Source of the DNA: an alpha proteobacterium SCGC AAA240-E13
GTDB taxonomy: Bacteria; Pseudomonadota; Alphaproteobacteria; Pelagibacterales; Pelagibacteraceae
Reading direction: 5' to 3'
Assembly: GCA_000504625.1 (NCBI GenBank)
Contig: AZHR01000004.1
Coordinates: 15,863-79,862, forward strand
Length of the DNA: 64,000 nucleotides
Part shown: in pieces, positions 11,384 through 52,526 of the stretch
Numbering within the stretch: position 1 is the stretch's first letter
How the letters are laid out: every line of letters starts with the position of its first letter
Notes under the pieces: model-generated
Seen by the model: the letters and a program-made list of their open reading frames with translations, nothing else
Database searches by the model: none
What the model was told of the DNA's origin: nothing
Position numbers and translations under genes: made by a program

Positions 11384-11872
11384 TTAATTAGATTTAACCG
11401 TTACTGATCTTCTATTTTGAGACCAAGCTAGAGGAGTGGAGCCAGAATTTACTGGTCTTTCTTTCCCATAACTTATCACTGAAATTCTATTTCCTGATAT
11501 TCCATAAGTCATAAGATAATCTTTTGCAGCATTAGCTCTTCTCTCTCCCAAAGCTAAGTTGTACTCCCTAGTGCCTCTTTCATCAGCATGACCTTCTGCA
11601 GTCACATTAATACTTTTATTCTTTCTTAACCACGCAGCTTGTTTCCTTAATGTATCTCTCGCTTTTGTAGTCAAAATCGATTTATTCGTTGCAAAGAAAA
11701 CTCTATCCGGAACACCAGTAGCTAAATATTTTACAGTTTCTTCACCTGTAAAAACGTCACCAGATATTTGTGTTTCTATTTTTTTTGTTGTTGTTTTTGT
11801 AGCGCAAGCTGACATTAATAGCGTCGCTATTACTACTAAAAATAAATTTCTCAATAAATTTTTTAAAACCAT
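11384..11872 (-). CDS. pal: peptidoglycan-associated lipoprotein Pal
   Basis: Lipobox LMSAC and a C-terminal OmpA-like domain (NLALGERRANAAKDYL). Tol-Pal synteny. Confidence 0.9.
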   Translation of the reverse strand: MVLKNLLRNLFLVVIATLLMSACATKTTTKKIETQISGDVFTGEETVKYLATGVPDRVFFATNKSILTTKARDTLRKQAAWLRKNKSINVTAEGHADERGTREYNLALGERRANAAKDYLMTYGISGNRISVISYGKERPVNSGSTPLAWSQNRRSVTVKSN

Positions 11873-11950
11873 ATGTGGACTCCCTTAAATTATTTCAAAC
11901 ATTAATATTTCTAGATACACGATGCAAGCGAAATTTCAATAAAATAATGG

Positions 11951-13285
11951 CTACTTTGTTAACAAAGATGACCAGGATGGGTCTGAAGCATCGGTCAGGG
12001 TTTCAACCAACCTCTCATTATAACCTGTTAGGTCAATTGACCATAATTTAGCTGAAAACCCTTCACCCTGAGTTCCTGATTTGGTTTCCCTGTAAAAAAT
12101 TAAAACTCTTCCATTAGGAGACCAGGAAGGAGCTTCCTGATAGAAATTTTCAGTGAGCAATCTTTCTCCAGTTCCATCTATTCTCATAACTCCAATATAA
12201 AATTTACCATTGTGCATTTTTGTAAATGCTATTAAATCTCCTCTTGGAGACCAAACTGGTGTACCATATATTCCTCTTCCAAATGTAATTCTTTTAACAC
12301 TAGAACCATCTTTTCTCATTGTGTATATTTGTTGAAGTCCACTCCTGTCAGAGTTAAAACAAATATATTTTCCATCGGGAGAATAAGAAGGAGAAGTATC
12401 TATTGCAGGATGTTCAGTAATTTTTTCAACTTCTCTTGTTTCTAAGTTCATAGTAAATATATCAGAATTACCATCTTTAGCAAAACTCATAATTATTTTT
12501 TTTCCATCGGGGGAAAATCTTGGCGCAAATGTCATACCTGGAAAATCACCAACTACTTCTTGAACACCCGTTTCAATATCTAATAAATAAACTCTTGGTA
12601 AATTTCTAAAAAAAGACATATAGGTCACCAATTGATTTGTTGGGTTAAATCTTGGAGTTAAGACAAGTTCATTTCCCAAAGTTAAATATTTGGTATTAGC
12701 TCCATCTTGATCCATGATTGCTAATTTTTTTATTCTTTGATTTTTTGGGCCTTTCTCAGATACATAAATTATTCTTGTATCAAAATATCCTTTTTCTCCA
12801 GTAAGTCTTTCGTAAACCTTATCTGTAATTATATGTGCTACTCTCCGCCAGTTATTTGGTACTGTAGTGAATGCTAAAGCAATTATTTCTTTAGCTGCTA
12901 ATATATCCCATAATCTAAATTCCACTCTTAATTTATCTTTTGTAATATTAATCTTTCCTGTAATCAAAGCTTGAGCTTTAATAAGCTGCCAATCTTCAAA
13001 ACGTGGCTTAACGTGAACTATAGCTGGTTTTTGAACGAAAGAATCTTTTTCTAATGGATAAAATAAACCTGATCTTAAAAGATTGTTTTCAACGACTTTA
13101 GATATTTCAGAACCAACCTCTATTTCATTTAATATTTCTGACGATTGTGACTCGATATAAAGGGGTGAAACTGCTATTGGCAATGGATCTAAATTTCCTC
13201 TGGTTATATCAATTTCGATTAAAGCAAAAGAATTTTGATTAAAAAAAATAGAAATTAATAAAATTAAAAATAATTTATTTTTCAT
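11951..13285 (-). CDS. tolB: Tol-Pal system beta-propeller protein TolB
   Basis: Signal peptide and repeated propeller motifs [24 protein letters not shown] and WSPNGRVL. Confidence 0.93.
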
Positions 13286-14094
13286 CCTTTTAGCATCTCG
13301 TTAGCGTCAAAATTGAGTTGTAATTCTTTCCATCTTTCGTAACCTGTTGTGGGAACTCTAAGTGGCTGGCATAATCTGACAGCTCTTAAGGCACTTTCAG
13401 CTAACACTTTGTAAAAACCCTGCCCAGGTATATTCATTCTAACATGATCTAAAATTTCTGATTTAATAACTGTACCATCTTTTTTTAATTTTAGTTTAAT
13501 TCTTACCAATAAATTTTCATTGTATGGTAATCCTAAAGGAATGCTCCAACAACCAAATATCTGGGCTTTTAATGCATCCTCTTCACTGAGAGATAAATTA
13601 GATGTTATAGAGTTTTCTTCTTGGCTTTGAGTAATTTTATTGCTTTTACGTGTAGTTTCTGCTTTTTCAACTTTAGATTTGTCAATCAGTGCTGCTATTT
13701 GATCGGGATCAAAAAGTTCCTTCTTTTCAAATTCTGAAACCTGTTTTATTTCAGTATCAATTTTTTCTGGGTTTTGTTTTTTAGTTTTAATTTTCTTTTG
13801 TTTTTTAACATCTTCGGGAAGCGGAACTGCTTCAGGCTTTTCCTTTTTAACCATTTTTGGAGGAGCTTGTTCTGAAACTATTCTGTCTTTTTGCTTTTTT
13901 TTTTTAATTTTATCCAAAATTTTTTTTGCTTTAGGAGCATAAGGTATATTCGTTATATCTGAAATTTGTATTAGTTCTACTGATATAATTGGAGGCAAAT
14001 CTACAGGTTTCCTTAACATATGTGGCAAGCTAATAGCTGTCAAAATAATGATTATAGAGTGAAATAACAGTGATAAAAAAATACTTTTGGTCAT
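13282..14094 (-). CDS. tolA: TolA-like cell envelope integrity protein
   Basis: N-terminal TM anchor, a Lys/Glu/Pro-rich linker and a C-terminal globular domain. It lies between tolR and tolB. Confidence 0.65.
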
Positions 14095-14109
14095 TCATCA
14101 ATAAATAAT

Positions 14110-14526
14110 TTACCTTTGTTTATAAGGTTCAGATATTAAAGCTACTTTAGTAAAACCTGAGCCAGATAGCATACCCATAATCTCCAAAACTCTTCCATAA
14201 TTTATTGTTTTATCTCCTCTAACATAAATTCTGGTATCAGTTCTATTTTTTGCAATAGCTAAAATTTTAGCTACTACTTTATCGTACTCAACTTGATGTT
14301 CTTGAATAAAAATTTCACCCTTCGAGTTAATTGACAATGTTAAAGGCTCCTGATCTTCAGGTAAGGAATCTGCTGAACTTTCGGGTAAATCTACTGGGAC
14401 ACCAACTGTTAGTAATGGTGCCGTCACCATAAATATAATTAATAATACCAACATCACATCAACAAAGGGCGTAACGTTTATTTCACTCATAGGTGCTGTG
14501 TGTGAACGATTATATTTAAATGCCAT
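14110..14526 (-). CDS. tolR: TolR (ExbD/TolR family)
   Basis: Motif INVTPFVDVMLVLLIIFM in a single TM segment, length 138 aa, Tol-Pal synteny. Confidence 0.85.
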   Translation of the reverse strand: MAFKYNRSHTAPMSEINVTPFVDVMLVLLIIFMVTAPLLTVGVPVDLPESSADSLPEDQEPLTLSINSKGEIFIQEHQVEYDKVVAKILAIAKNRTDTRIYVRGDKTINYGRVLEIMGMLSGSGFTKVALISEPYKQR

Positions 14527-14532
14527 ATCTTA

Positions 14533-15213
14533 TTAGATAATTGATAAAAATCTTTTTGTAAAATTTTCTATTCTTCGTCCGTATATTCTAGACTCATTAT
14601 TAAATTTATTATACGCCATCACAGCAGGTATTGCTGCAAGCAAACCCAATGCTGTTGCAAATAGTGCTTCGGCGATTCCCGGTGCAACTATAGCTAAACT
14701 TGTATTTCTAGATATCGCTATTGATTGAAAAGAGTTCATGATGCCCCAAACTGTTCCGAATAATCCAATAAATGGCGCTGTAGCACCTACTGTTGCTAAA
14801 AAAGAAAAATTTTTTTCAATAGATTGAATTTCTTGATCTGCTGAAATTTCTAAAACTCTCGTAACTCTTGCAGTTTGGATATCACTATTTTTAGATTTTG
14901 ATTTGATTAATTCAACCATAGCAGACCGAAATATATTTGCTATAGGATCTTTAGTTTTACTTGGAAGACTTTTATAAAAACTTTCTGCAGATTTTGAACT
15001 CCAAAATTTATCTTCAAAAATTGTAGAAGTTTTATGAATGCTTTTAAAAAGCCTATATTTATCAAATATTAATGCCCAAGAATAAATTGAAGCCAAAATT
15101 AAAATAATAATTACACTTTTTACGACAATGTCTGCCCTTAAAAAAAGATTTATTAATGAAAAATCTGTAGCGCTGGCTAGTCCAACCGCTTGTGTTGCTA
15201 TTTCTGCTTCCAT
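14533..15213 (-). CDS. tolQ: TolQ (MotA/TolQ/ExbB proton channel)
   Basis: Three TM segments and the motif GLFGTVWGIMNSF. Tol-Pal synteny. Confidence 0.9.
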   Translation of the reverse strand: MEAEIATQAVGLASATDFSLINLFLRADIVVKSVIIILILASIYSWALIFDKYRLFKSIHKTSTIFEDKFWSSKSAESFYKSLPSKTKDPIANIFRSAMVELIKSKSKNSDIQTARVTRVLEISADQEIQSIEKNFSFLATVGATAPFIGLFGTVWGIMNSFQSIAISRNTSLAIVAPGIAEALFATALGLLAAIPAVMAYNKFNNESRIYGRRIENFTKRFLSII

Positions 15214-29073: not shown

Positions 29074-29158
29074 TTTGTCCTTCTGTTAAAGAATCAACAG
29101 AAATTGCTGTATTACACGCCAATAAACCCATAACCAAAATCCCTAGAAACTTTTTCAT
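29063..29158 (-). CDS. mini lipoprotein-like ORF, 31 aa, hypothetical
   Basis: Own translation: MKKFLGILVMGLLACNTAISVDSLTEGQNEK, with a lipobox-like LLAC. Its ATG overlaps the msrA stop (TAATG). Confidence 0.3.
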   Translation of the reverse strand: MKKFLGILVMGLLACNTAISVDSLTEGQNEK

Positions 29159-29742
29159 TATTGCCATATTCTTTTTAATTGTTCTTCTCTACCACAGGCT
29201 TTTTTGTACATTAAATAATTAATAAAACTTTCCTGATAATAGTCTTGGTGATAGTTCTCTGCTGAATAAAACTTTTCAAATTTTCTTACAAATGTCACGA
29301 CTTTCTTTCCATTAAATTTTTTTTCAATCTTCTTGATGGATTTTTCTGTTAACTGTTTCTGCAAATTATTTTGATAAAATACAACTGTTCTATAACTAAG
29401 TCCTTTATCGCAGAATTGACCCGCGGCGTCAAAAGGATCTATGTTCGTCCAATATAAATCTAGTAACCGTTCAAAACTAATCTTGCTTTGGTCGTAGATA
29501 ATTTTCACTGTTTCAAAATGGCCAGTATTTTTATAAGTAACTTCTTTATAGGTCGGATTAACTAGATGCCCCCCCGAATAGCCCGAAATAACTTCTTGTA
29601 CACCAATTGCCTTCTCAAAAGATTCCTCCATACACCAAAAACACCCTCCGGCAAAATATGCATGTCTTATATTTTCAGCATTAACAAAATTAATATTGAA
29701 AAAAAATAAAACTAAAAACACGTATAGAGATAGTTTATTCAT
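29158..29742 (-). CDS. msrA: peptide-methionine (S)-S-oxide reductase MsrA with an N-terminal signal peptide
   Basis: Catalytic motif GGCFWCME preceded by MNKLSLYVFLVLFFFNINFVNA. Confidence 0.9.
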   Translation of the reverse strand: MNKLSLYVFLVLFFFNINFVNAENIRHAYFAGGCFWCMEESFEKAIGVQEVISGYSGGHLVNPTYKEVTYKNTGHFETVKIIYDQSKISFERLLDLYWTNIDPFDAAGQFCDKGLSYRTVVFYQNNLQKQLTEKSIKKIEKKFNGKKVVTFVRKFEKFYSAENYHQDYYQESFINYLMYKKACGREEQLKRIWQ

Positions 29743-30950: not shown

Positions 30951-31301
30951 TTAATTAGTTCTAGATTTTAAATAATATTGTGATCCATCAAATTTGGTAA
31001 AAAGAGAATTGATGAGCGGGTGTTGTATTGCTTTAGGATATTCTTCCAGATCAAGATTTTGTTCAGCAACATATGTTGTGTGTTCAGCTGCATGAACTAA
31101 AACGTGATACCAAGGTTTATTTTTTGGAGGACGTGATCGAGCTATTTGTTCATACCACTCATCTGAACTTTGAAAAAAGGGATCAATATCAAAAACTACT
31201 CCTGTATAATCAAATAATTTATGGTGTACAATCTGACCTATTAGAAATTTAGCTTTATAATCTGTCATACAAGTTTCTTTTTCCTTTTTTTCATTATTCA
31301 T
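30951..31301 (-). CDS. hspQ: heat shock protein HspQ (hemimethylated-DNA-binding YccV family)
   Basis: FLIGQIVHHKLFDYTGVVFDIDP and HTTYVAEQNL. The internal Met at 31268 (MTDYKAKF) fits the canonical N-terminus better than the track start. Confidence 0.8.
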   Translation of the reverse strand: MNNEKKEKETCMTDYKAKFLIGQIVHHKLFDYTGVVFDIDPFFQSSDEWYEQIARSRPPKNKPWYHVLVHAAEHTTYVAEQNLDLEEYPKAIQHPLINSLFTKFDGSQYYLKSRTN

Positions 31302-31500
31302 CTGACATAGGACTATTAATCGGTGTTGATATAATAGGTTCTAATTCGTCTTGTGATTGCTCCGATACCGTTTTTCTTTGCTTCTCTAAACGCTTTGGAA
31401 ATTTCACGTATTTTTTCTTTTTATTTTTATTTTGCTTTATCTTTTTTCTTCTATGGTAAGGATGACTTCCCCTAGTTTTACCGCTTGATACACTTTTCAT
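31294..31500 (-). CDS. hypothetical highly basic 68-aa protein
   Basis: ORF only. It has a Lys/Arg-rich N-terminal two-thirds and an acidic, Ser/Pro-rich tail. No family was recognised. Confidence 0.3.
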   Translation of the reverse strand: MKSVSSGKTRGSHPYHRRKKIKQNKNKKKKYVKFPKRLEKQRKTVSEQSQDELEPIISTPINSPMSDE

Positions 31501-31513
31501 TTTAATTGTTCAT

Positions 31514-32227
31514 TTAACGTTGTTCAATTAGTTTAGATTCTTTCCAGATACCTTTTAAAATTATTCCATCATGAAATGTGTAAGTTCCTAATCCGTTGAA
31601 TTTAGCATCTTTCCATTCTCCAACGTATTTTGCACCGTTTGCCCATATGTAAATTCCTTGTCCGTGCTTTATGTTATCTTTAATTTCTCCAATGTATTTA
31701 TTTCCATTAGCATATATGTTGGTTCCCTTTCCATTTCGTTTATTATCTTTATATTTTCCAATATATTTATTTCCAATAGAGTCTATCAAAATCCCTTTTC
31801 CATGATAGCTACCATCTTTAAATTGACCTATATATTTATTTCCATTTAGATATGACATGGTTCCTCGTCCATTCGGAAGACCGTATTTGAATTCACCAAT
31901 ATATTTTATTCCGTTCGAAAAATTCATGGTTCCATGTCCGTTTGGTTTATTATATTTTAATTCTCCAATATATTTTATTCCATCGGGATAAGTTAAAATT
32001 CCATGCCCATGAAATTTCCCATTCCTATATTCCCCTTCATATAAAACTTTTTTGTATTTGTATTGTTCCTGATATAAGAGATCATATGCAATGTTTTTTT
32101 TTTCAGTTCCAAAACAATTCGTCCATTTGAAAGAATCGGTCCCCTTACAGTTGGGCAACAAACTGTCTGCTTGGCTCATATTGTAAAAAGCCAAAACCAG
32201 AAATACACATAGAGATAGTTTTTTCAT
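31514..32227 (-). CDS. secreted MORN-repeat protein (about 8 repeats)
   Basis: Signal peptide, then SLLPNCKGTD...WTNCFGT, then tandem YxGExxxGxxxGxG units (KYIGEFKYGLPNGRGT and others). Confidence 0.85.
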   Translation of the reverse strand: MKKLSLCVFLVLAFYNMSQADSLLPNCKGTDSFKWTNCFGTEKKNIAYDLLYQEQYKYKKVLYEGEYRNGKFHGHGILTYPDGIKYIGELKYNKPNGHGTMNFSNGIKYIGEFKYGLPNGRGTMSYLNGNKYIGQFKDGSYHGKGILIDSIGNKYIGKYKDNKRNGKGTNIYANGNKYIGEIKDNIKHGQGIYIWANGAKYVGEWKDAKFNGLGTYTFHDGIILKGIWKESKLIEQR

Positions 32228-32323
32228 TATTTTTTTTTATTTTGTAAAAGAAAAGAAAAGTTTCAATCTTTTTATTACACTTGTAAACAGAATGTAATTA
32301 AAGAGAATTTAAATACCTAACAA

Positions 32324-33853
32324 TCAATTTGTAACTTTGCGCCTTAATTTTTTGACAAGTAGTTGTGATAATTTAAGAAAAAATCCGTTCTCTTTATCTT
32401 TTGTAACAAACATTGCCTTATAGTTTAATACGCCTTCATAAAACAATCTCCTGATAGTTGATTTTGAAGACCATTTCCGCCATTCCCATGCTTGAGAAAT
32501 CATATAAACAAAAGAAAAAAATGAATTATGTGGTAATTCACATAATCTTCTAACTAGTGGTTCCAAAATTGGAAATCTTAAGACTACAATCGCCCATTTT
32601 TGTAAATTACTTATTTTAACAATGTCTTTATTACGTTCTGGGCGCAAAGCTAATAAACTTAAATGGTAGTTATAAGGTGGCTTTTGTGACATTTCAAGAT
32701 CTTTTTTATCTATAAGACCTTTCTCAAGAGTAAAATCAGTTAAACCTAGGCCTGGAAAAAAATAGACAATATACATTCCCACAGCATTTGGTTTTATTTT
32801 TTGATTAATTTTTATAGTTTTCCATGCCTGCTCATAGGTTTCTGTAGGTATTCCAAACATATTAAATGTCTGAAATGGAATTTTATATTTTTTCAATAAA
32901 TATGCGCAATCATATATTTTTTGATCAGGCAACCTTCCTTTTTTTAAAACATTGCAACGAATATTCTCATCTCCAGATTCTACTCCAAAACGCACATTAT
33001 CAATATTTGCAGACTTCATTACTTTAACTTGATCTTCATCAACCAATTCAGCTCTAAGATTACAAGTCCATGGTAAATTAATTCTTTCTTTGTATTTTTG
33101 ACAAAACTCAACAAACCACTTTTTGTGAGAATTAAAAGTTGAGTCTGTAAACATTAATAATTTACCTTTAAGAAAACCTTTCTTTTTCACATTCTCTATT
33201 TCATCTATAAAAGAATCTACATTTTGATAAACTGTCGATTTTCCAGTACCAGAAAGGTTTACTATTGTAGGAACCTCACAAAATGAACATTTAAAAGGAC
33301 ATCCTCTTGATCCAACAAAAGTTACAAATGGGTAATTTTTAAAATATTCATATTTGGTATACAATTCACGATCTGGAAATGGAAGAGCAGTTAATTCACC
33401 TGATGTGAGTTTTGGTCTTATTCCATTTTTAATAATATCATTTCTTTTTTTTATCCATAAATTTTTTATGTTGAAATAATCAATCTTTTTATCAATAGCA
33501 TTGCATAATTCTACCATTGCATGTTCTCCTTCACCTCTACAAATCATGTCAATGCCATCATGTTTTAATGTAGAATCAGGAGCCATAGTTGGATGAATTC
33601 CTCCGACAATTTGTGGACAATGTATTCCATTTTTTTTTATGAATGTTGACATTGACTTTAGCCAATTCCACTGCATAGACATTATTGAATAAGCTATCAA
33701 ATCTGGTTTTATTTTCTTTATTTCTTCAACTGCTTTTTCTTCATCGTCAAATAATATGCTTGTATCATGGCCATGTTTCTTAAGCACAGCAGAAAGCTGC
33801 ATAACACCGTAGTATTCAATCCACAAATCCTGTAAAAATAAGACCTTTGCCAT
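32324..33853 (-). CDS. B12-binding-domain radical SAM protein (class B-like)
   Basis: N-terminal Rossmann-like cobalamin-binding domain pattern (PDLIAYSIMS, IVGGIHPT) and radical SAM cluster motif CPFKCSFC (CX3CX2C). Confidence 0.85.
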   Translation of the reverse strand: MAKVLFLQDLWIEYYGVMQLSAVLKKHGHDTSILFDDEEKAVEEIKKIKPDLIAYSIMSMQWNWLKSMSTFIKKNGIHCPQIVGGIHPTMAPDSTLKHDGIDMICRGEGEHAMVELCNAIDKKIDYFNIKNLWIKKRNDIIKNGIRPKLTSGELTALPFPDRELYTKYEYFKNYPFVTFVGSRGCPFKCSFCEVPTIVNLSGTGKSTVYQNVDSFIDEIENVKKKGFLKGKLLMFTDSTFNSHKKWFVEFCQKYKERINLPWTCNLRAELVDEDQVKVMKSANIDNVRFGVESGDENIRCNVLKKGRLPDQKIYDCAYLLKKYKIPFQTFNMFGIPTETYEQAWKTIKINQKIKPNAVGMYIVYFFPGLGLTDFTLEKGLIDKKDLEMSQKPPYNYHLSLLALRPERNKDIVKISNLQKWAIVVLRFPILEPLVRRLCELPHNSFFSFVYMISQAWEWRKWSSKSTIRRLFYEGVLNYKAMFVTKDKENGFFLKLSQLLVKKLRRKVTN

Positions 33854-34144
33854 ATCTATCTTCTATCTATTAAAGAAGCTTAACAATTTTAACAAAATCA
33901 ACTCGATATCTCTTACGTCTCTTATTAATTTTTGACAATACCATTGTAAAAGATCATTTTATCTTAAAAGTTATGTTCGTCAATTTAAATGATATGCATC
34001 TTTATAGTGTAAATCTGCGTCTCCCTCTCAATCTTCCATTAATGTTATAGATGTGGTAATTTTTATGTTATAAAATCTCATTTGGATCAACATCAAACTA
34101 CAATTTCAAAAGCCTTATTTAGTTCACAAAAATCAAAACATAAA

Positions 34145-34270
34145 ATGAACATCCGATTAGCTTGCGTTGAGAACGGATTAGACAATACAGGTTTCCATAA
34201 AATTGCGGCTTTCATAAAATCAATTCATCAAAATACAAAAGTTGCATATGTACCTACCGCAAATCATCGT
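34145..34270 (+). pseudogene. possible 5' remnant of a second B12-binding radical SAM gene
   Basis: MNIRLACVENGLDNTGFHKIAAFIKSIHQNTKVAYVPTANHR resembles the N-terminus of a B12-binding domain. It is locally GC-richer. The frame then runs into antisense MORN sequence. Confidence 0.3.
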
Positions 34271-34314
34271 AATATTAAAATATCAATAAATATTTTTGAA
34301 AATTTTATTATTAA

Positions 34315-34914
34315 TTATTTTGGTTTAACTAACTTATCGTTTTTCCAAATTCCTTCCTCAATTTTTCCGTTCTCTTGTGTAAAAGTTCCTTGTCCGCGTC
34401 GTTTTCCTTTTTTCCATTCTCCAACGTATTTATCTCCATTAATGTATGTGTATGTTCCTTGTCCATGACGCCCTTTTAAATTATCGGGAACATGATACTC
34501 ATCCCTTTTCCATTCCCCAACGTATTTATCTCCATTTGAATATATATATGTTCCCTGTCCATAATATTCAGCTTTTTTCCATTCTCCAGTATATTGGTCT
34601 CCATTAGCATAAGTATATGTTCCTTGCCCATGTCTCTTATGATTTTTATACTGTCCAACATATTCTCTCCCTTCATGTCTAAAGATTCCCTGTCCATGGA
34701 ATTCTCCTTTATAAAATTCGCCAATATATTTCTGACCTTTTGGGCCCAACGCAGTACCATGGCAGCTTGTCCATTTTCTCATCATACTAAAATGTTTTCT
34801 TGTGTACTTCGAAATATTTTCATCATTTCCTTTGCATTCTGGTAGGGAGCTTTGTGCCATCGCAATTTGGCATAACATTAAGATAAAATACCAATAAAAG
34901 AGCAATTTTTTCAT
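34315..34914 (-). CDS. secreted MORN-repeat protein (about 6 repeats), paralog of 31514-32227
   Basis: Signal peptide, SSLPECKGND...WTSCHGT, MORN units (KYVGEWKKGKRRGQGT), and the same C-terminal GIWKxxKL ending as the paralog. Confidence 0.85.
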   Translation of the reverse strand: MKKLLFYWYFILMLCQIAMAQSSLPECKGNDENISKYTRKHFSMMRKWTSCHGTALGPKGQKYIGEFYKGEFHGQGIFRHEGREYVGQYKNHKRHGQGTYTYANGDQYTGEWKKAEYYGQGTYIYSNGDKYVGEWKRDEYHVPDNLKGRHGQGTYTYINGDKYVGEWKKGKRRGQGTFTQENGKIEEGIWKNDKLVKPK

Positions 34915-34960
34915 TTATGTTATGTACTGGGTAGTCAAAATATTTAATTTTTAACAGAAA

Positions 34961-35491
34961 TTAATTTGGTTTAGTTACTAATTTTTTTTTTTCATAAAAA
35001 TAATTAGCAATGAAAGCGCCATAAGAAAAAATTACCGTAGAGAAAACAGTATTTTTGAAAAAAGGTATTGCCATAAAATAACAATTTATTAATCCATTTA
35101 AATTTTTTTCATAAAGTGATCCAAAAGCCCAAACCCCAAAATTGGAAATTAAGTAAAATATTAATGAACCAACAAAACCAAAAACAAACAAATTTTTAAA
35201 ATTCATTTTATTTGCTATTTTAGAAAAAATAATAGTGATTAAAAATAGTGACAGGTAAACAAAAAACATGTGTTCATAAAATCCAACAAAAACATCTGCT
35301 AACAACATAGAGGCCATTAAAACAATGAAAGATAAGTTTATATTTTTAAACAAATAACTGCTCATTATTGCAACAGCTATTATAGGAGTAAAATTTGGTG
35401 GATGAGGTATTAGTCTGGAAAAAGCTAACAATAAAATTAAACTTATCGGGAAAATTTCTTTTTGTAATATTATTGTTAATTTTTTCATCAT
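34961..35491 (-). CDS. small polytopic membrane protein, putative inner-membrane transporter component (DUF6580-like)
   Basis: About 5-6 TM segments. The RLIPHPPNFTPIIAVAIM motif matches my memory of the DUF6580 putative transport family. A 2-nt gap separates it from the upstream receptor gene. Confidence 0.55.
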   Translation of the reverse strand: MMKKLTIILQKEIFPISLILLLAFSRLIPHPPNFTPIIAVAIMSSYLFKNINLSFIVLMASMLLADVFVGFYEHMFFVYLSLFLITIIFSKIANKMNFKNLFVFGFVGSLIFYLISNFGVWAFGSLYEKNLNGLINCYFMAIPFFKNTVFSTVIFSYGAFIANYFYEKKKLVTKPN

Positions 35492-35493
35492 AA

Positions 35494-37422
35494 TTAATAT
35501 ACCTTCCTTATACCAAAATTCAAATTCCTACCCGGAGTTGAATATTGATACCCTTCTTCGTAATTTACGTCAAATATATTCGACGCTGAAAAATATATTT
35601 TATATTTGTTAAATAAGTTATAATTACCTGAAAGATCTACTGTGACATAATCATCTAATATTACATCATTATATCCCCCATTACTTGTATTGGCGTTTCC
35701 GTAATCTCTTCTCTCTGCTGCATACTTAATTAAAAGTGATGTATTAATTTTATTATTAATTTTTTTATTTATGGATGCATTCATTGAGTGCCTAGGTACC
35801 CTCACTGGCATCTCATCAAGACATGTATGCCAATCAGCCTGATATTTGGCATAATCTGGATCATCGCAGTCTTCTCCATCATAAGCATCAGTAAAAGTAT
35901 ACCCTAAATCAAAACTTAAAGTTTTTTCAGGTTTCCATTTGGTTGTAAGTTCAAAACCTCTGCTTTTAATGTTTCCTTCTGAATTTTGTATAGTTTGAGA
36001 TGGCCCTTTTCCATTATCAGTATTTTCTATCCAGTTGGAAAGATTATCATCATAGATCACATGGAATAAAGTTAGATCTAAATTGAGATTATGTTTTTCA
36101 ATAAATTTTTCAATACCAAAATCAAAACTGGTACTCTTTTCAGGAACCAGGTCTTCTTTATTATCAACGTTATAATCATAAAAGTAATCATTCAAAGAAG
36201 GAAATCTTATTCCAGTACCCAAAGAAGATCTGAATTTAGTTCTTTTATCTGGTATGTAGGCAAAAGTAATTCTTCCTGTTTCATAAGCTCCTGCCGTTGT
36301 ATGATCATCTCTTCTTAACCCAATTGTTGAATATATTTTTTCTGTAGGTCTAAATTGTAAATCTATATATTGTGAGTAGACTGCTTCATCACTTTCAAGG
36401 TTACCGGTAACAGACCATGTTGTAAAATCTGCTCTGTCAAATTCGTTATCCAAACCGTAAACAATTTTTGTATCATAATTAAAATTATATTCACCAATAA
36501 GATTAATGGCATCTCTGTATCCCCAGTAAATATCATTTGTGCCTGAGTAGCCTATTACGGATCTTTTTATATACGTATTATTATATGATAATGTATTTTT
36601 AAGATTCCCATCATCACGAATTAATCTTAAACTGTAAGAACTTTCTTCATCATCAGTATTATTACCATCTGTTCTTCCAGAAGTAACTTCGTCATACTCC
36701 AAATATGAGTCTGCATATCTTAGGTAATTTTCTAATCTAAATTTATCATTAATATTGTAACCAAAATTTGCAACAACACTGTCATTGTAATATTTATCTT
36801 TTTCATCATTATCGTTCATGGCTGAAATTCCGTCGGTTAGGAATTTATTGAAACCAACAAAATAATCATAGTTGTTTTCTTTTCCATCGAAGGAAATATT
36901 AAAATTCTTTGTATCATTTGAGCCTGTGGATACTTCTATGTCATTATGATGACCTTCTTTACCTTTTTTTGTAAAAAGATTGATAGTTCCTCCTATGGCA
37001 CTACTACCATACAAAGAACTTTGTGTACCTTTCAAAATTTCAACACGATCTATTGAACCCTTCATTAAATTGCCAAAATAATAATCATTTGATGGGCTTG
37101 AGGGATCTGAGACTTTTACACCATCTATATACACTGTAGAATATCTTTTTGGTAGACCTCTTAGCTGTACCCCCGAAGTAGTACCATGACCTCCTGATTG
37201 AAAATAATTCATTCCATTTAAATTTTTACTTAAAACATCTCCAAGAAAAAACTCATTAGATTCTGAAATTGCTTTACTATCAACTATCACAACATCGCTT
37301 CCTACAATGCTTTTTGATTGATAAGTTTTTCCTGCCGAAATAACAATAATAGGAATATTCTCAGCAAACAATTTTTTAGATGAGAACGTAATAATTAATA
37401 AAAAAATAATAATTCTTAGCAT
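35494..37422 (-). CDS. TonB-dependent outer-membrane receptor, BtuB-like
   Basis: Signal peptide, a TonB-box-like IPIIVISA, plug motifs (RVEILKGTQSSLYGSSAIGGTINL), and a beta-barrel ending in NFGIRKVY with a terminal aromatic residue. Confidence 0.9.
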   Translation of the reverse strand: MLRIIIFLLIITFSSKKLFAENIPIIVISAGKTYQSKSIVGSDVVIVDSKAISESNEFFLGDVLSKNLNGMNYFQSGGHGTTSGVQLRGLPKRYSTVYIDGVKVSDPSSPSNDYYFGNLMKGSIDRVEILKGTQSSLYGSSAIGGTINLFTKKGKEGHHNDIEVSTGSNDTKNFNISFDGKENNYDYFVGFNKFLTDGISAMNDNDEKDKYYNDSVVANFGYNINDKFRLENYLRYADSYLEYDEVTSGRTDGNNTDDEESSYSLRLIRDDGNLKNTLSYNNTYIKRSVIGYSGTNDIYWGYRDAINLIGEYNFNYDTKIVYGLDNEFDRADFTTWSVTGNLESDEAVYSQYIDLQFRPTEKIYSTIGLRRDDHTTAGAYETGRITFAYIPDKRTKFRSSLGTGIRFPSLNDYFYDYNVDNKEDLVPEKSTSFDFGIEKFIEKHNLNLDLTLFHVIYDDNLSNWIENTDNGKGPSQTIQNSEGNIKSRGFELTTKWKPEKTLSFDLGYTFTDAYDGEDCDDPDYAKYQADWHTCLDEMPVRVPRHSMNASINKKINNKINTSLLIKYAAERRDYGNANTSNGGYNDVILDDYVTVDLSGNYNLFNKYKIYFSASNIFDVNYEEGYQYSTPGRNLNFGIRKVY

Positions 37423-37534
37423 GTTTGCACCTTTACTCCTTAATTTCGAGTCTATTAAAAACCCAAAAAATTAATGCCACTGCTAATTTTTCATTGTAGA
37501 ACTAGACTTTTCTCGGCCTTTATTCGACAGCGGA

Positions 37535-37629
37535 CTATACCGGGTAGTGTTCGGACTTGGATTAGCTCCTTACCTTTGCGAGCACAGTTAATGATTCACA
37601 CATTATTCCCCACCGTAGTAACGGTACAG
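37535..37629 (-). promoter_or_regulatory. cobalamin riboswitch aptamer, compact (class II / AdoCbl-variant-like)
   Basis: The minus-strand RNA has a GGGAAUAAUGUGUGAAUCAUUAACUGUGCUCGCAAAGGUAAGGA core and the B12-box-like CCAAGUCCGAACACUACCCGG. An 8-bp helix CUGUACCG/CGGUAUAG closes it. It lies 5' of the BtuB-like gene. Confidence 0.7.
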
Positions 37630-37688
37630 TGAACGCAATAAACTATTCGAAAAAAAAAGTCAAATTTTTTTTGTTAACAAAAAATTAA

Positions 37689-50393: not shown

Positions 50394-52526
50394 TTAATAA
50401 GTCAATATTTCCATACTTTCAACTAAAAGTCCTAATTTTCTGGCATCAGGTGATTCATATAATTCTAAAGGAGAAACAGGATTATTGATTTTAAATTTAA
50501 TATAGTGAGTATTATCAGATATTAAATCTTTTTTCAGTCTCAATTCAATTGAATTTTCATTTAATTCATCAATGTTTTTCAAAGAAAATTTTTTAATAAA
50601 TAAATCATTTATACTAATCTCAAAATTTATTGGTTCGTTTTTATTAACAATCAATGATCCCAATTTAATTTTAATTAAATAATCTTCATTTTCTGTATTA
50701 TTAAATTTAAAAAGCAATGTTGAAATATTTCCTTCAGTCCATATACCTGGCTTAGGCGAATTAAAGTTATGTGACCATCCAAAACCGTGTACACCTTTTT
50801 TATCTTGGAATTTAAAAATATTTTTTTTTTTCTCAGATAATATCATCGGATCGTACTTACTTAATTCTTGTTTATCGAAATTTGTCATTTCATTTTTTTT
50901 ATCTGCAACAACAACCCAAACATTATCTCTAAAGAAAAAACCAACATTTTTATTTTTAAATAAATATTTTAAATTTCTTAAATGATTGTTGTTATCAATT
51001 GCAAATATTGTATTTTTGTCAATTATACCTTGGTCAAATGATTTGTATAAATTCGATCTACTGATTGAAGCTATTTTTCTATTATATCTTGCATGTTTTG
51101 CGATGTCTGTACTTTTGAAAATTCTTGAAATTAAAATTTCCTTTAAAGACATGAGCAAGTGTGTTTCGTTGTTTAGATATGTAGTTCTTAAAAACTGATT
51201 TTCCTGACTTAGTTTATTCCAAAATAAATAGTTCATTTCTTTTTTTTCAGTTTTGAATTCATTTGAGTTAAAATAATTTTTTAAACCTGGAGAAATATCA
51301 ATGACTTGCAAAAAAAATAATAACGTCAAAATATATAATGAATTTTTGGTCGAAAATTTATTGTATAATACCAATATAGATCCTAAAAATAATAAATAGT
51401 ATACGGGCCAAAACAATCTACCAGAAGCTCTAACTAAACTCAGTATACCATAGATATATTTAGGTAGTTCGAATTCAAAAAGTAAATGATCAGCGAATGA
51501 AATTTTGTTGGTTAGGGCAATTAATGGAAATAAAATAATAATAAAAAAATAAGGTCTATATTTTTTTTTTTTAAATTGGTTAAAATTAAAAAAGAAATGA
51601 AAAATACCAATTATTAAAAGAAAAATACCACCAATCCCCAAATAATTAAATCCTTCAACTCTTTCTTGCCATTGAGAAGAAATTTCTGGCAAGAATAAAG
51701 ACCAATTTATTATATTGTTTGGCGTTTGAGAAATTGGGTTAATTATACTTGCCAAATTTAATTTATAAAATCCATATCCATGTCCCAAAGCATCAGTGTA
51801 TGGCACCTCAAAAAATCCAAAAACATACATTGTTATAAATAAAAAAATTAATGGAGACAATATTTGTATTATCAACTTTTTAATATTTAAATTAATTAGA
51901 TGTTCATTAATAATAAATAAAAAAAATATTCCAAACAAAATCATTGTAAAATAAAAATGAGTTAATGCAGACAATAAAATTACCACTGTCCAATAAAATA
52001 TTTTTTTGTATGATTCTTTTTTTGTCTCTATATAAAAGCCCAATAAAATAAGCCAATGCGCAGACAATGATAGATGCCATGAGATTCTATGAATAAAAAT
52101 TGGAGACAATAAAAAAAATAATGATCCAATTATTGAAAAGGTTAAATTTTTTGTATGATAATAAATAATTAAAAATGAAATATATGATTGTAAAAAAAAA
52201 CAAATAAAAACCCATAAACTAAAAAAATGAAAATCACTTGGAAGAATATTGTGAAATAATTTAAATATGACAGAAAGCAATGGAATAGATGAAAAAACAA
52301 TACCACTTGCTATATCCATTCCATAATTGGGATTGCTAGCTATTGGAAATCTCCAAACATCATCCTTAAAATATTTCCAAGAAATTAAATCCGAAGTCAT
52401 ATCTGTACTTGATGTCAGCCAATGATGACTTGTGAAAGATATATAATCAAATCCCAAAATATATGTTGTGGCAAAAAAACTTAAAAAAATATATAGCAAT
52501 AAAACTATCTTATTTTTTTCTATCAT
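50394..52526 (-). CDS. large polytopic membrane protein with a C-terminal soluble domain (DUF6311-like, uncertain)
   Basis: N-terminal HHWLTSSTDMTSDLISWKYFKDDVWRFPI loop motif, about 13 TM segments, and a C-terminal domain of about 270 aa. Confidence 0.45.
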   Translation of the reverse strand: MIEKNKIVLLLYIFLSFFATTYILGFDYISFTSHHWLTSSTDMTSDLISWKYFKDDVWRFPIASNPNYGMDIASGIVFSSIPLLSVIFKLFHNILPSDFHFFSLWVFICFFLQSYISFLIIYYHTKNLTFSIIGSLFFLLSPIFIHRISWHLSLSAHWLILLGFYIETKKESYKKIFYWTVVILLSALTHFYFTMILFGIFFLFIINEHLINLNIKKLIIQILSPLIFLFITMYVFGFFEVPYTDALGHGYGFYKLNLASIINPISQTPNNIINWSLFLPEISSQWQERVEGFNYLGIGGIFLLIIGIFHFFFNFNQFKKKKYRPYFFIIILFPLIALTNKISFADHLLFEFELPKYIYGILSLVRASGRLFWPVYYLLFLGSILVLYNKFSTKNSLYILTLLFFLQVIDISPGLKNYFNSNEFKTEKKEMNYLFWNKLSQENQFLRTTYLNNETHLLMSLKEILISRIFKSTDIAKHARYNRKIASISRSNLYKSFDQGIIDKNTIFAIDNNNHLRNLKYLFKNKNVGFFFRDNVWVVVADKKNEMTNFDKQELSKYDPMILSEKKKNIFKFQDKKGVHGFGWSHNFNSPKPGIWTEGNISTLLFKFNNTENEDYLIKIKLGSLIVNKNEPINFEISINDLFIKKFSLKNIDELNENSIELRLKKDLISDNTHYIKFKINNPVSPLELYESPDARKLGLLVESMEILTY

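Follow-up and report, generated by a model that had tools for sequence, protein, structure and literature searches.

Layout of the array

The window analysed here is a stretch of 64,000 nucleotides from contig AZHR01000004.1 (assembly GCA_000504625.1) of the alpha proteobacterium SCGC AAA240-E13, a member of the Pelagibacteraceae. Between 37.6 and 31.5 kb of the window, the minus strand carries an array that starts with a cobalamin riboswitch and continues with the genes of a BtuB-like TonB-dependent receptor, a small membrane protein of the family DUF6580, a MORN-repeat protein (MORN1), a B12-binding radical S-adenosylmethionine (SAM) enzyme and a second MORN-repeat protein (MORN2). An earlier note, made from the letters alone, had taken this array for a candidate module of corrinoid acquisition and use. 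Six of the seven items named in it (the riboswitch, the receptor, the DUF6580 protein, the radical SAM enzyme and both MORN proteins) were found on the minus strand where it had placed them (Table 1), and protein-by-protein searches with the hidden Markov models of Pfam and NCBIfam found the expected domains in the receptor, the DUF6580 protein, both MORN proteins and the radical SAM enzyme. The remaining item, a gene remnant, is considered below together with the gap.

The functional core of the array is a three-part unit of the AdoCbl-II riboswitch, the BtuB-like receptor and the DUF6580 protein. As a whole, the array probably consists of two adjacent and separable units, namely a corrinoid import operon run by the riboswitch and a cobalamin-dependent radical SAM enzyme as a consumer of the cofactor, the MORN proteins being without a role in B12 metabolism. 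None of the parts is new in kind: the array combines a riboswitch with a BtuB-like receptor, a protein of S-component fold and a class B radical SAM enzyme. The family of the inner-membrane component is uncharacterised. No description of this system was found in the literature searched on SAR11 and cobalamin, TonB-dependent receptors or radical SAM enzymes, and none was found there of DUF6580 or PF20221. NCBIfam has no model for the family, and its Pfam label is still that of a DUF.

Table 1. Features of the array, in the order of reading on the minus strand of the window
Feature	Positions in the window	Strand	Basis
AdoCbl-II (class II cobalamin) riboswitch aptamer, receptor 5' leader	37537..37627	-	Rfam RF01689
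62-nt conserved 3' extension of the riboswitch, candidate expression platform	37475..37536	-	leader alignment; outside the Rfam model
BtuB-like TonB-dependent outer-membrane receptor, 642 aa	35494..37422	-	Pfam, NCBIfam, PDB sequence matches
DUF6580 protein, 176 aa, proposed solitary S-component-type inner-membrane corrinoid transporter	34961..35491	-	Pfam, AlphaFold2/Foldseek
MORN1: MORN-repeat protein, 199 aa, signal-peptide-like N-terminus	34315..34914	-	Pfam MORN
Intergenic gap, 461 bp, with sigma-70-like promoter match	33854..34314	-	consensus match
B12-binding (class B) radical SAM enzyme, 509 aa	32324..33853	-	Pfam, AlphaFold2/Foldseek
MORN2: MORN-repeat protein, 237 aa	31514..32227	-	Pfam MORN

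Riboswitch, receptor and DUF6580 protein

The leader of the receptor gene, described earlier as riboswitch-like and as a B12 sensor, is matched by the Rfam covariance model AdoCbl-II (RF01689) over model positions 1-81 of 81 with 51.6 bits (gathering score 36.5, E = 1.2e-9), which confirms that description; orthologous leaders score 62-100 bits with the same model. An alignment of 16 SAR11 leaders revealed compensatory changes in P1 and the inner helices. Both partners have changed in 12 of the 31 predicted pairs: the P1 pair of columns 10 and 98 is UA in nine leaders and CG in five, and the pair of columns 61 and 86 is GC in eight and CG in eight. Since the minimum-free-energy fold of the whole leader is not better than the folds of shuffled sequences (z = -0.5), the riboswitch assignment rests on the covariance model and covariation, not on thermodynamics.

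The aptamer lies 114 nt upstream of the receptor ATG, and a Shine-Dalgarno sequence AAGGAG is found 13 nt upstream of the same codon. The 62-nt stretch directly 3' of the aptamer is near-invariant in most of the 16 aligned leaders. RNAalifold places a hairpin in it, with almost no covariation, and the stretch is missing in locus L116, where the riboswitch directly precedes the DUF6580 gene. In SAR11, this stretch possibly serves as the expression platform of the riboswitch class. By analogy with its class, the leader would bind a cobalamin and repress the operon. Johnson et al. reportedly found in 2012 that class II switches favour cobalamins with small upper ligands. AdoCbl-II has been described as a 'marine' riboswitch variant, known mainly from metagenomes (PMC2864571), and the present results trace the class to SAR11-type genomes, in which it heads the uptake operon.

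The receptor comprises the domains Plug (PF07715, 63 bits) and TonB_dep_Rec_b-barrel (PF00593, 112 bits). Its best NCBIfam model is TonB-B12 (TIGR01779) with 187 bits, the best non-B12 model reaching 102 bits. The only full-length sequence matches in the PDB are those to Escherichia coli BtuB (residues 26-532, E about 2e-13), and the colicin I receptor is matched over the plug only. The domains, the top NCBIfam model and the cobalamin riboswitch upstream bear out the BtuB-like receptor of the earlier note. As to the substrate, the riboswitch is a stronger argument than the sequence scores.

The start codon of the DUF6580 gene lies 2 nt past the receptor stop codon. The family had been named in the earlier note, and rightly so, as the Pfam model DUF6580 (PF20221) scores 136.3 bits against a cutoff of 27. 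The protein carries RLIPHPPNFTPI, and a match below the Pfam threshold points to the riboflavin S-component family ECF-ribofla_trS (24 bits), where ECF stands for energy-coupling factor. With 4,109 clusters at 50% identity, the family is a large one. Among 100 sequences, the conserved positions are R26 (99%), H30 (94%), N33 (98%), D66 (98%), G70 (99%), Y79 (99%), F112 (100%), N117 (99%), W121 (98%), Y127 (100%) and P143 (100%), and the motif set of the family reads RLIPHPPNFTP, D66, Y79, NxxVW, Y127 and PF.

The AlphaFold2 model of the DUF6580 protein, built with the 100-sequence alignment, has six to seven helices, a predicted local distance difference test score (pLDDT) of 95 and a predicted template modelling score (pTM) of 0.88. 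The top PDB match found by Foldseek is BtuM with cyanocobalamin (8c7p; probability 0.98, TM-score 0.60, full length, 183 columns), and the next meaningful match is ThiT, the thiamine S-component. On this model, an ECF S-component-like fold can be assigned confidently to DUF6580, a possibility which the earlier note had raised for the 176-aa protein. S-components usually bind their substrate on the side of loops L1, L3 and L5. When placed by this usual topology, the conserved residues of DUF6580 cluster in L1, L3, L5 and the adjoining helix ends. A search of the PDB with the family profile gave a single match, 6FNP_A, a 182-aa membrane chain of ECF-CbrT (E = 0.0085, 19 bits, N-terminal half), which is presumably the S-component CbrT.

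Relatives of DUF6580 were collected by a scan of one genome per species with a 17-sequence alignment, which gave at least 80 loci; the 80 listed were used, and with 44 loci of the radical SAM enzyme (see below) they make up 124 related loci. The listed DUF6580 loci belong mostly to Pelagibacteraceae, the others to SAR116, other Alphaproteobacteria, Marinimicrobia, Ignavibacteria/Kapaibacteria, Flavobacteriales, Bdellovibrionales and the candidate phylum Roizmanbacteria. In 57 of the 80 loci, DUF6580 has the gene of a TonB-dependent receptor directly next to it, and a cobalamin-clan riboswitch was detected in 44 of the 66 loci scanned with Rfam. Since a genome has only a few B12 riboswitches, the linkage of the riboswitch to DUF6580 and the receptor is far beyond chance. 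The order of riboswitch, receptor and DUF6580 recurs in dozens of independent genomes, so the array did not arise by chance.

Two lineages of the receptor-DUF6580 operon occur in SAR11. In the lineage of the window (L046-L068), the DUF6580 proteins are 50-72% and the receptors 40-47% identical to those of the window, and AdoCbl-II is located upstream of the receptor in 23 of the 26 scanned SAR11 loci; one of the three loci with no such match, L049, has no upstream sequence. The operons of this lineage are situated at the borders of glycan islands, often beside a tRNA gene. The second lineage (L074-L124) has DUF6580 proteins about 40% identical to that of the window, a different receptor and a fixed core context, in which acyl-CoA dehydrogenases, TauE, phosphoglucomutase, GlmU and GlmS are encoded. 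Here the classic Cobalamin riboswitch (RF00174) is found upstream of the receptor and DUF6580 in all nine scanned loci. A mesocosm study of 2022 stated that it was unknown whether B12 regulates btuB of SAR11 (PMC9296465). The 32 scanned Pelagibacteraceae loci with a cobalamin riboswitch ahead of a btuB-like gene (23 of the AdoCbl-II type and 9 of the classic type) lead to the prediction of B12-responsive regulation.

A cobalamin riboswitch is also present in the non-SAR11 loci L069, L070, L071, L098, L099 and L102. The order of the genes varies: in L116, the riboswitch is followed by DUF6580 and then by the receptor, and in SAR116 a TonB gene is inserted between DUF6580 and the receptor. In Roizmanbacteria (L075:5567-7422 and L113:7989-10033), a receptor-less DUF6580 gene is followed by a cobalamin riboswitch and then by an open reading frame (ORF) that encodes 379 or 449 aa and matches no Pfam family. 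In loci of the Marinimicrobia type (L089:10069-11329 and L106:9983-13221, both on the minus strand, and L092), a cobalamin riboswitch drives the gene of a lipoprotein with a weak DUF5074 match. The lipoprotein gene converges on DUF6580, and the latter stands behind feoAB, fur and an HD-domain gene in place of a receptor.

The first unit would comprise the riboswitch, the receptor and DUF6580, perhaps with MORN1 riding along. When cobalamin is ample, it would be bound by the class II riboswitch in the leader, and expression would be shut down. When B12 is scarce, the BtuB-like receptor, energised by TonB, would carry a corrinoid across the outer membrane, and the translationally coupled DUF6580 protein, with its six-helix S-component fold, would move it inwards across the inner membrane. 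The predicted corrinoid pocket would be formed by the periplasm-facing loop residues R26, H30, N33, D66, G70, Y79, N117, W121, Y127 and P143. DUF6580 would act alone, without an ECF ATPase module, as has been proposed for BtuM. In the scheme as a whole, the identity of the domains, the folds, the order of the genes and their linkage across genomes are observed, whereas the substrate, the direction of transport, the regulation and the reaction of the radical SAM enzyme are predicted.

No ORF with the Walker A and LSGGQ motifs, the signature of ABC ATPases, was found in any of the 80 listed DUF6580 loci. Neither an ABC transporter nor a BtuG/H-like gene is present in 31.5-37.7 kb, where the earlier note had likewise seen no BtuCDF-type or BtuG/BtuH-like gene, and the part of the window at 1-29 kb showed none either. 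Given the S-component/BtuM-like fold and the linkage to riboswitch and receptor across phyla, the small membrane protein is the strongest candidate for transport across the inner membrane, the step for which it had been put forward. DUF6580 would then be a further, unstudied family of solitary S-component-type transporters, BtuM-like in action and outside the BtuM family, with a corrinoid as the predicted substrate.

Another possibility is that DUF6580 is not a corrinoid transporter and imports cobalt, cobinamide, alpha-ribazole or 5,6-dimethylbenzimidazole, or that it is a periplasm-facing processing or reductase protein, B12 crossing the inner membrane in some other way. The corrinoid substrate is predicted from context, and B12 riboswitches elsewhere are said by Rodionov and colleagues to control transporters of cobalt and precursors as well. 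The gene in Roizmanbacteria is located upstream of the riboswitch and is not under it, and BtuM itself couples binding with decyanation (PMC6072759). However, DUF6580 is paired in 57 of the listed loci with a BtuB-like receptor of a size class suited to corrinoids, the operons contain no other gene for an inner-membrane transporter, the nearest fold is that of a B12 transporter, and the one weak profile match is a chain of ECF-CbrT. SAR11 is reported to be auxotrophic for B12 and not to produce it (PMC9296465), so the import of cobalt or precursors under the control of B12 makes less sense. It seems very unlikely that DUF6580 has a function other than corrinoid transport.

Among known systems, BtuB with BtuM of Thiobacillus denitrificans (Rempel et al. 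2018, PMC6072759) resembles the pair of the window in the combination of a TonB-dependent B12 receptor with a six-helix S-component fold of about 20 kDa, in the co-location of the gene with btuB, and in having no adjacent ECF module or BtuCDF; of the PDB structures, that of BtuM comes closest to the DUF6580 model. The differences are that DUF6580 has a motif set of its own, that Cys80 of BtuM ligates cobalt and is invariant (PMC6072759), whereas the cysteine C137 of DUF6580 is conserved at 87% only, and that 131 BtuM homologues have been reported against the 4,109 clusters of DUF6580. A sequence homology of the two families was considered and rejected, as neither phmmer nor the 100-sequence profile matched BtuM among all PDB chains at E up to 10.

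ECF-CbrT of Lactobacillus delbrueckii (Santos et al. 2018, PMC5997447, PDB 6FNP) is alike in being linked with B12 and in containing the only solved chain that the DUF6580 profile detects, although the similarity is marginal. In contrast to the DUF6580 loci with no ABC ATPase, CbrT needs the EcfAA'T module, and solitary CbrT does not support growth. The btuB riboswitch of E. coli with BtuB-BtuFCD shares with the window the position of a cobalamin riboswitch ahead of a TonB-dependent B12 receptor. It differs from it in that the riboswitch of the window is of class II and not of the classic class, and in that the inner-membrane step of the window is not BtuFCD and no gene for a periplasmic binding protein is present.

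A number of observations weigh against the scheme of corrinoid import preferred here. The transport role of DUF6580 is a prediction from the fold and gene context. The Foldseek E value for BtuM is weak (0.27) despite the good probability and TM-score, and no sequence similarity to BtuM is detectable. C137 is the only conserved cysteine of DUF6580 and is not invariant (C in 87, S in 9 and A in 3 of 100 sequences), so the cysteine-ligation chemistry of BtuM is probably inapplicable. In Marinimicrobia, Ignavibacteria and several other groups, there are DUF6580 loci with no adjacent receptor or riboswitch. The receptor misses the NCBIfam equivalog cutoffs (187 against 599.7 bits for TIGR01779 and 112 against 836 for PRK10641); it is named BtuB-like and not BtuB, because these scores are far under the cutoffs. 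Of the systems that energise the outer membrane, the annotated part of the window (1-29 kb) showed only Tol-Pal, and neither TonB nor ExbBD was seen there; an ECF module may be encoded elsewhere in the genome.

About half of the B12-auxotrophic Gram-negative bacteria have no BtuCDF, and their inner-membrane B12 transporter has been reported as unknown (PMC6072759). DUF6580, as a large family found beside B12 riboswitches and receptors in several phyla, is a concrete and testable candidate for many of these auxotrophs.

Radical SAM enzyme and its relation to the uptake operon

The radical SAM enzyme contains the Pfam domains B12-binding (PF02310, 62.6 bits, cutoff 32.1) and Radical_SAM (PF04055, 63.6 bits). 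Its sequence includes IVGGIHPT and CPFKCSFC, and the cluster motif CxxxCxxC (C185-PFK-C189-SF-C192) is invariant in both family alignments. The AlphaFold2 model has a pLDDT of 92.9, and Foldseek matched it to all cobalamin-dependent radical SAM enzymes of solved structure (MgmA, TsrM, CysS, TokK and OxsB) and to AprD4 (E 1e-21 to 1e-15). The matches to MgmA, TsrM, TokK and OxsB span the full length, and the top ones are the cobalamin-dependent methylases MgmA and TsrM. The N-terminal cobalamin-binding fold is present in the model, and the earlier assignment of a B12-binding domain withstood this check. The enzyme shares with class B radical SAM enzymes (MgmA, TsrM, TokK, CysS, OxsB and the non-cobalamin AprD4) an N-terminal Rossmann B12-binding domain, a radical SAM barrel and CxxxCxxC. 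It is only 14-19% identical to them, and its genomic surroundings are those of the biosynthesis of nucleotide sugars and glycans and not of pathways for antibiotics, hopanoids or methanogenesis. Orthology with named radical SAM enzymes was rejected, as all scores lie far under the NCBIfam cutoffs (HpnJ 119 against 578, PhpK 109 against 600, BchE 85 against 481, ladderane 104 against 360).

It may be asked whether the enzyme uses cobalamin at all. AprD4 keeps an N-terminal B12-like domain and does not use cobalamin, so the fold alone is no proof of B12 use, which also counts against the scheme. An enzyme of the AprD4 type, with a vestigial B12-like domain, would stand apart from the B12 supply. 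The best PDB sequence match of the enzyme is in fact AprD4 (6fd2, E = 3e-15), no equivalog cutoff of NCBIfam is reached, and in this class the sequence does not tell whether B12 is used. On the other hand, the Pfam B12-binding score is well above its cutoff, the top folds are those of cobalamin-dependent methylases, and orthologues and paralogues occur repeatedly beside the B12 uptake operon. Cobalamin independence is considered improbable.

Orthologues of the enzyme were found in 44 metagenome loci with 50-86% identity. A family 2 glycosyltransferase (GT2) gene, sometimes fused to a nucleotidyltransferase, neighbours the orthologue in 29 of them. Other recurrent neighbours encode DegT aminotransferases, DUF6311 and other large polytopic membrane proteins, NAD-dependent epimerases and NDP-hexose 2,3-dehydratase; HldE-like genes are also present, and further B12-radical SAM paralogues recur nearby. 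In the smallest cassette (L020), which is set between core genes, the gene of the radical SAM enzyme stands between those of a polytopic membrane protein and a GT2. The GT2, DegT, DUF6311 and dehydratase neighbours place the enzyme in nucleotide-sugar or envelope-glycan chemistry, and it is a probable sugar- or glycan-modifying enzyme and B12 consumer, as judged from its model and these clusters. This is in line with the methylase acting on an envelope glycan or lipid which had been suggested earlier. In the second unit of the scheme, the enzyme, probably expressed from its own promoter, would use the imported cofactor in this chemistry, for C-methylation or a related radical reaction.

A DUF6311-type membrane protein of 710 aa is encoded in the glycan island of the window (50394-52526, minus strand) and is 36% identical to the DUF6311 proteins accompanying the orthologues elsewhere. 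Partners of the radical SAM enzyme may therefore lie inside the island.

The array had been proposed to be a self-contained module of six genes, and this view did not hold. MORN genes were found in none of the 124 related loci, and among the orthologue loci an adjacent AdoCbl-II/receptor/DUF6580 operon occurs only in L029 and L031, in divergent orientation. L029 is the single such case among the 16 orthologue loci with at least 2.5 kb of upstream sequence, and in L031 an upstream flank of 1 kb already reaches the receptor. The orthologues thus usually do not adjoin the uptake operon, and Rfam detected no riboswitch in the six scanned orthologue loci with no adjacent operon; both facts add to the objections listed above. 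Upstream of the radical SAM gene of the window, a sigma-70-like site TTGACG-16-TAAAAT (33983 to 33956, minus strand) was found as a consensus match only. The gene is probably transcribed from a promoter of its own, and control by the riboswitch is not demonstrable.

Looser clustering was observed in SAR11. Of the 27 AdoCbl-II-type SAR11 loci, 16 have one or more B12-binding radical SAM genes at a distance of up to 8 kb from the operon, as against none of the 53 other listed DUF6580 loci (Fisher p = 5e-10, uncorrected for relatedness or for two near-duplicate pairs). All 18 operon-neighbouring genes tested encode both the B12-binding and Radical_SAM domains, and these genes fall into at least 15 subfamilies under 45% identity. 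In two single-cell genomes, a radical SAM gene stands inside the operon string: L051:4026-8447 has the order riboswitch, receptor, radical SAM and DUF6580, and L116:7850-14781 has the order riboswitch, DUF6580, receptor, radical SAM, acyl carrier protein and E1-type dehydrogenase. The idea of the earlier note holds in this looser form, as a clustering of B12 uptake operons with B12-binding radical SAM genes in SAR11, and not as a fixed module with this particular enzyme.

These results bear on the possibility that the neighbours are coincidental, the operon serving for general B12 uptake on behalf of enzymes encoded elsewhere, and the radical SAM and MORN genes being unrelated cargo of the island. 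It agrees with the rarity of the operon beside orthologues, with the second SAR11 lineage, where no radical SAM gene was found nearby in any of 24 loci of fixed core context, with the lack of co-conservation of the MORN genes, and with the promoter-like site in the gap ahead of the radical SAM gene. It is at odds with the clustering in 16 of the 27 loci, which involves so many subfamilies, and with the strings of L051 and L116; besides, B12-dependent enzymes of other kinds were noticed neither in the loci nor in the annotated part of the window. A merely coincidental neighbourhood is rather unlikely on this evidence. The clustering could also be explained by shared residence at the borders of hypervariable islands, which is a further point against the scheme, but a mutual attraction of the uptake operon and the genes of its consumers is the likelier explanation.

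Under the preferred reading of import operon and consumer, the repeated presence of diverse B12-binding radical SAM genes near the operon, at the borders of glycan islands, hints at the purpose that B12 serves in SAR11. As a broader conjecture, advanced tentatively and with somewhat less than even confidence, DUF6580 may be a large and so far unrecognised third family of S-component-type B12 transporters which works alone with a BtuB-like receptor and forms the main route of B12 uptake in SAR11, and the chief consumers in the AdoCbl-II lineage may be diversified cobalamin-dependent radical SAM enzymes which tailor the hypervariable glycans of the cell surface. If this is true, the B12 demand of SAR11, the most abundant marine heterotroph, would be tied to surface diversity, not to central metabolism.

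Setting, gap and MORN proteins

The array is at the border of a hypervariable glycan island of a SAR11-type genome. The GC content is about 0.30 across the array and the core genes to the left of it and about 0.22 from 38 kb on, and glycosyltransferases and sugar-nucleotide enzymes begin where it drops (island 38000-64000). The closest relatives of the array proteins come from Pelagibacteraceae single-cell genomes and marine metagenomes. A scan of 31.2-37.8 kb found no intrinsic terminators, and promoter-like sites are not more frequent there than in shuffled sequence, so the operon boundaries are predicted ones. Elsewhere in the window, a Tol-Pal cluster (TolQ, TolR, an unannotated ORF of 270 aa, TolB and Pal) occupies 11384-15213 on the minus strand; the unannotated ORF may be TolA. 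A very basic ORF of 68 aa (31294-31500, minus strand) has no family match, overlaps the start of an HspQ/YccV-like gene and is perhaps not a genuine gene.

The gene remnant which the earlier note placed in the gap ahead of the radical SAM gene could not be detected by any search made. Searches of the gap with blastx and tblastx gave no match in the 124 related loci, and the matches with blastn were all due to chance in AT-rich sequence. A single long open stretch, an ORF on the plus strand (34082-34468), is present and has no Pfam match, and hhalign found no match of the gap ORF to the N-termini of B12-radical SAM enzymes (probability 0.4%).

MORN1 and MORN2 match Pfam MORN with 87.5 and 144 bits, respectively, and are 34% identical to each other. 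Both are probably secreted, judging by their N-termini as read by eye (MORN1 MKKLLFYWYFILMLCQIAMA|QS, MORN2 MKKLSLCVFLVLAFYNMSQA|DS). Homologues of MORN1 are abundant in marine metagenomes, and their contexts are varied: between lpxI and lpxB, by TPR proteins, by an NlpC/P60 peptidase, and after pntAB and an epimerase gene. A role of the MORN proteins in the periplasmic handling of corrinoids had been proposed and is rejected here, as they are not co-conserved with the radical SAM or DUF6580 loci and the six contexts of MORN1 homologues, except that of L126, are unrelated to B12. MORN1 is adjacent to the conserved system, possibly co-transcribed with it, and outside it. The MORN proteins would rather belong to a large SAR11 family of small envelope proteins with no specific role in B12 metabolism.

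A close homologue of MORN1 is encoded between lpxI and lpxB in the lipid A biosynthesis cluster of L130:5210-7712, and also in L131 and L132, which hints at an envelope association of small MORN proteins. In L126:8001-10342, from a sibling genome (GCA_000513055.1), a MORN gene whose product is 63% identical to MORN1 lies directly upstream of a gene for a B12-binding radical SAM protein of 546 aa. The latter differs from the enzyme of the window and is 69% identical to the product of the gene by the uptake operon in L060 and L062. This second case of a MORN-radical SAM pair is a lead, not evidence. The periplasmic-type MsrA of the window (29158-29742, minus strand) and MORN2 have very similar signal-like N-termini (MNKLSLYVFLVLFFF... 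and MKKLSLCVFLVLAFY..., respectively).

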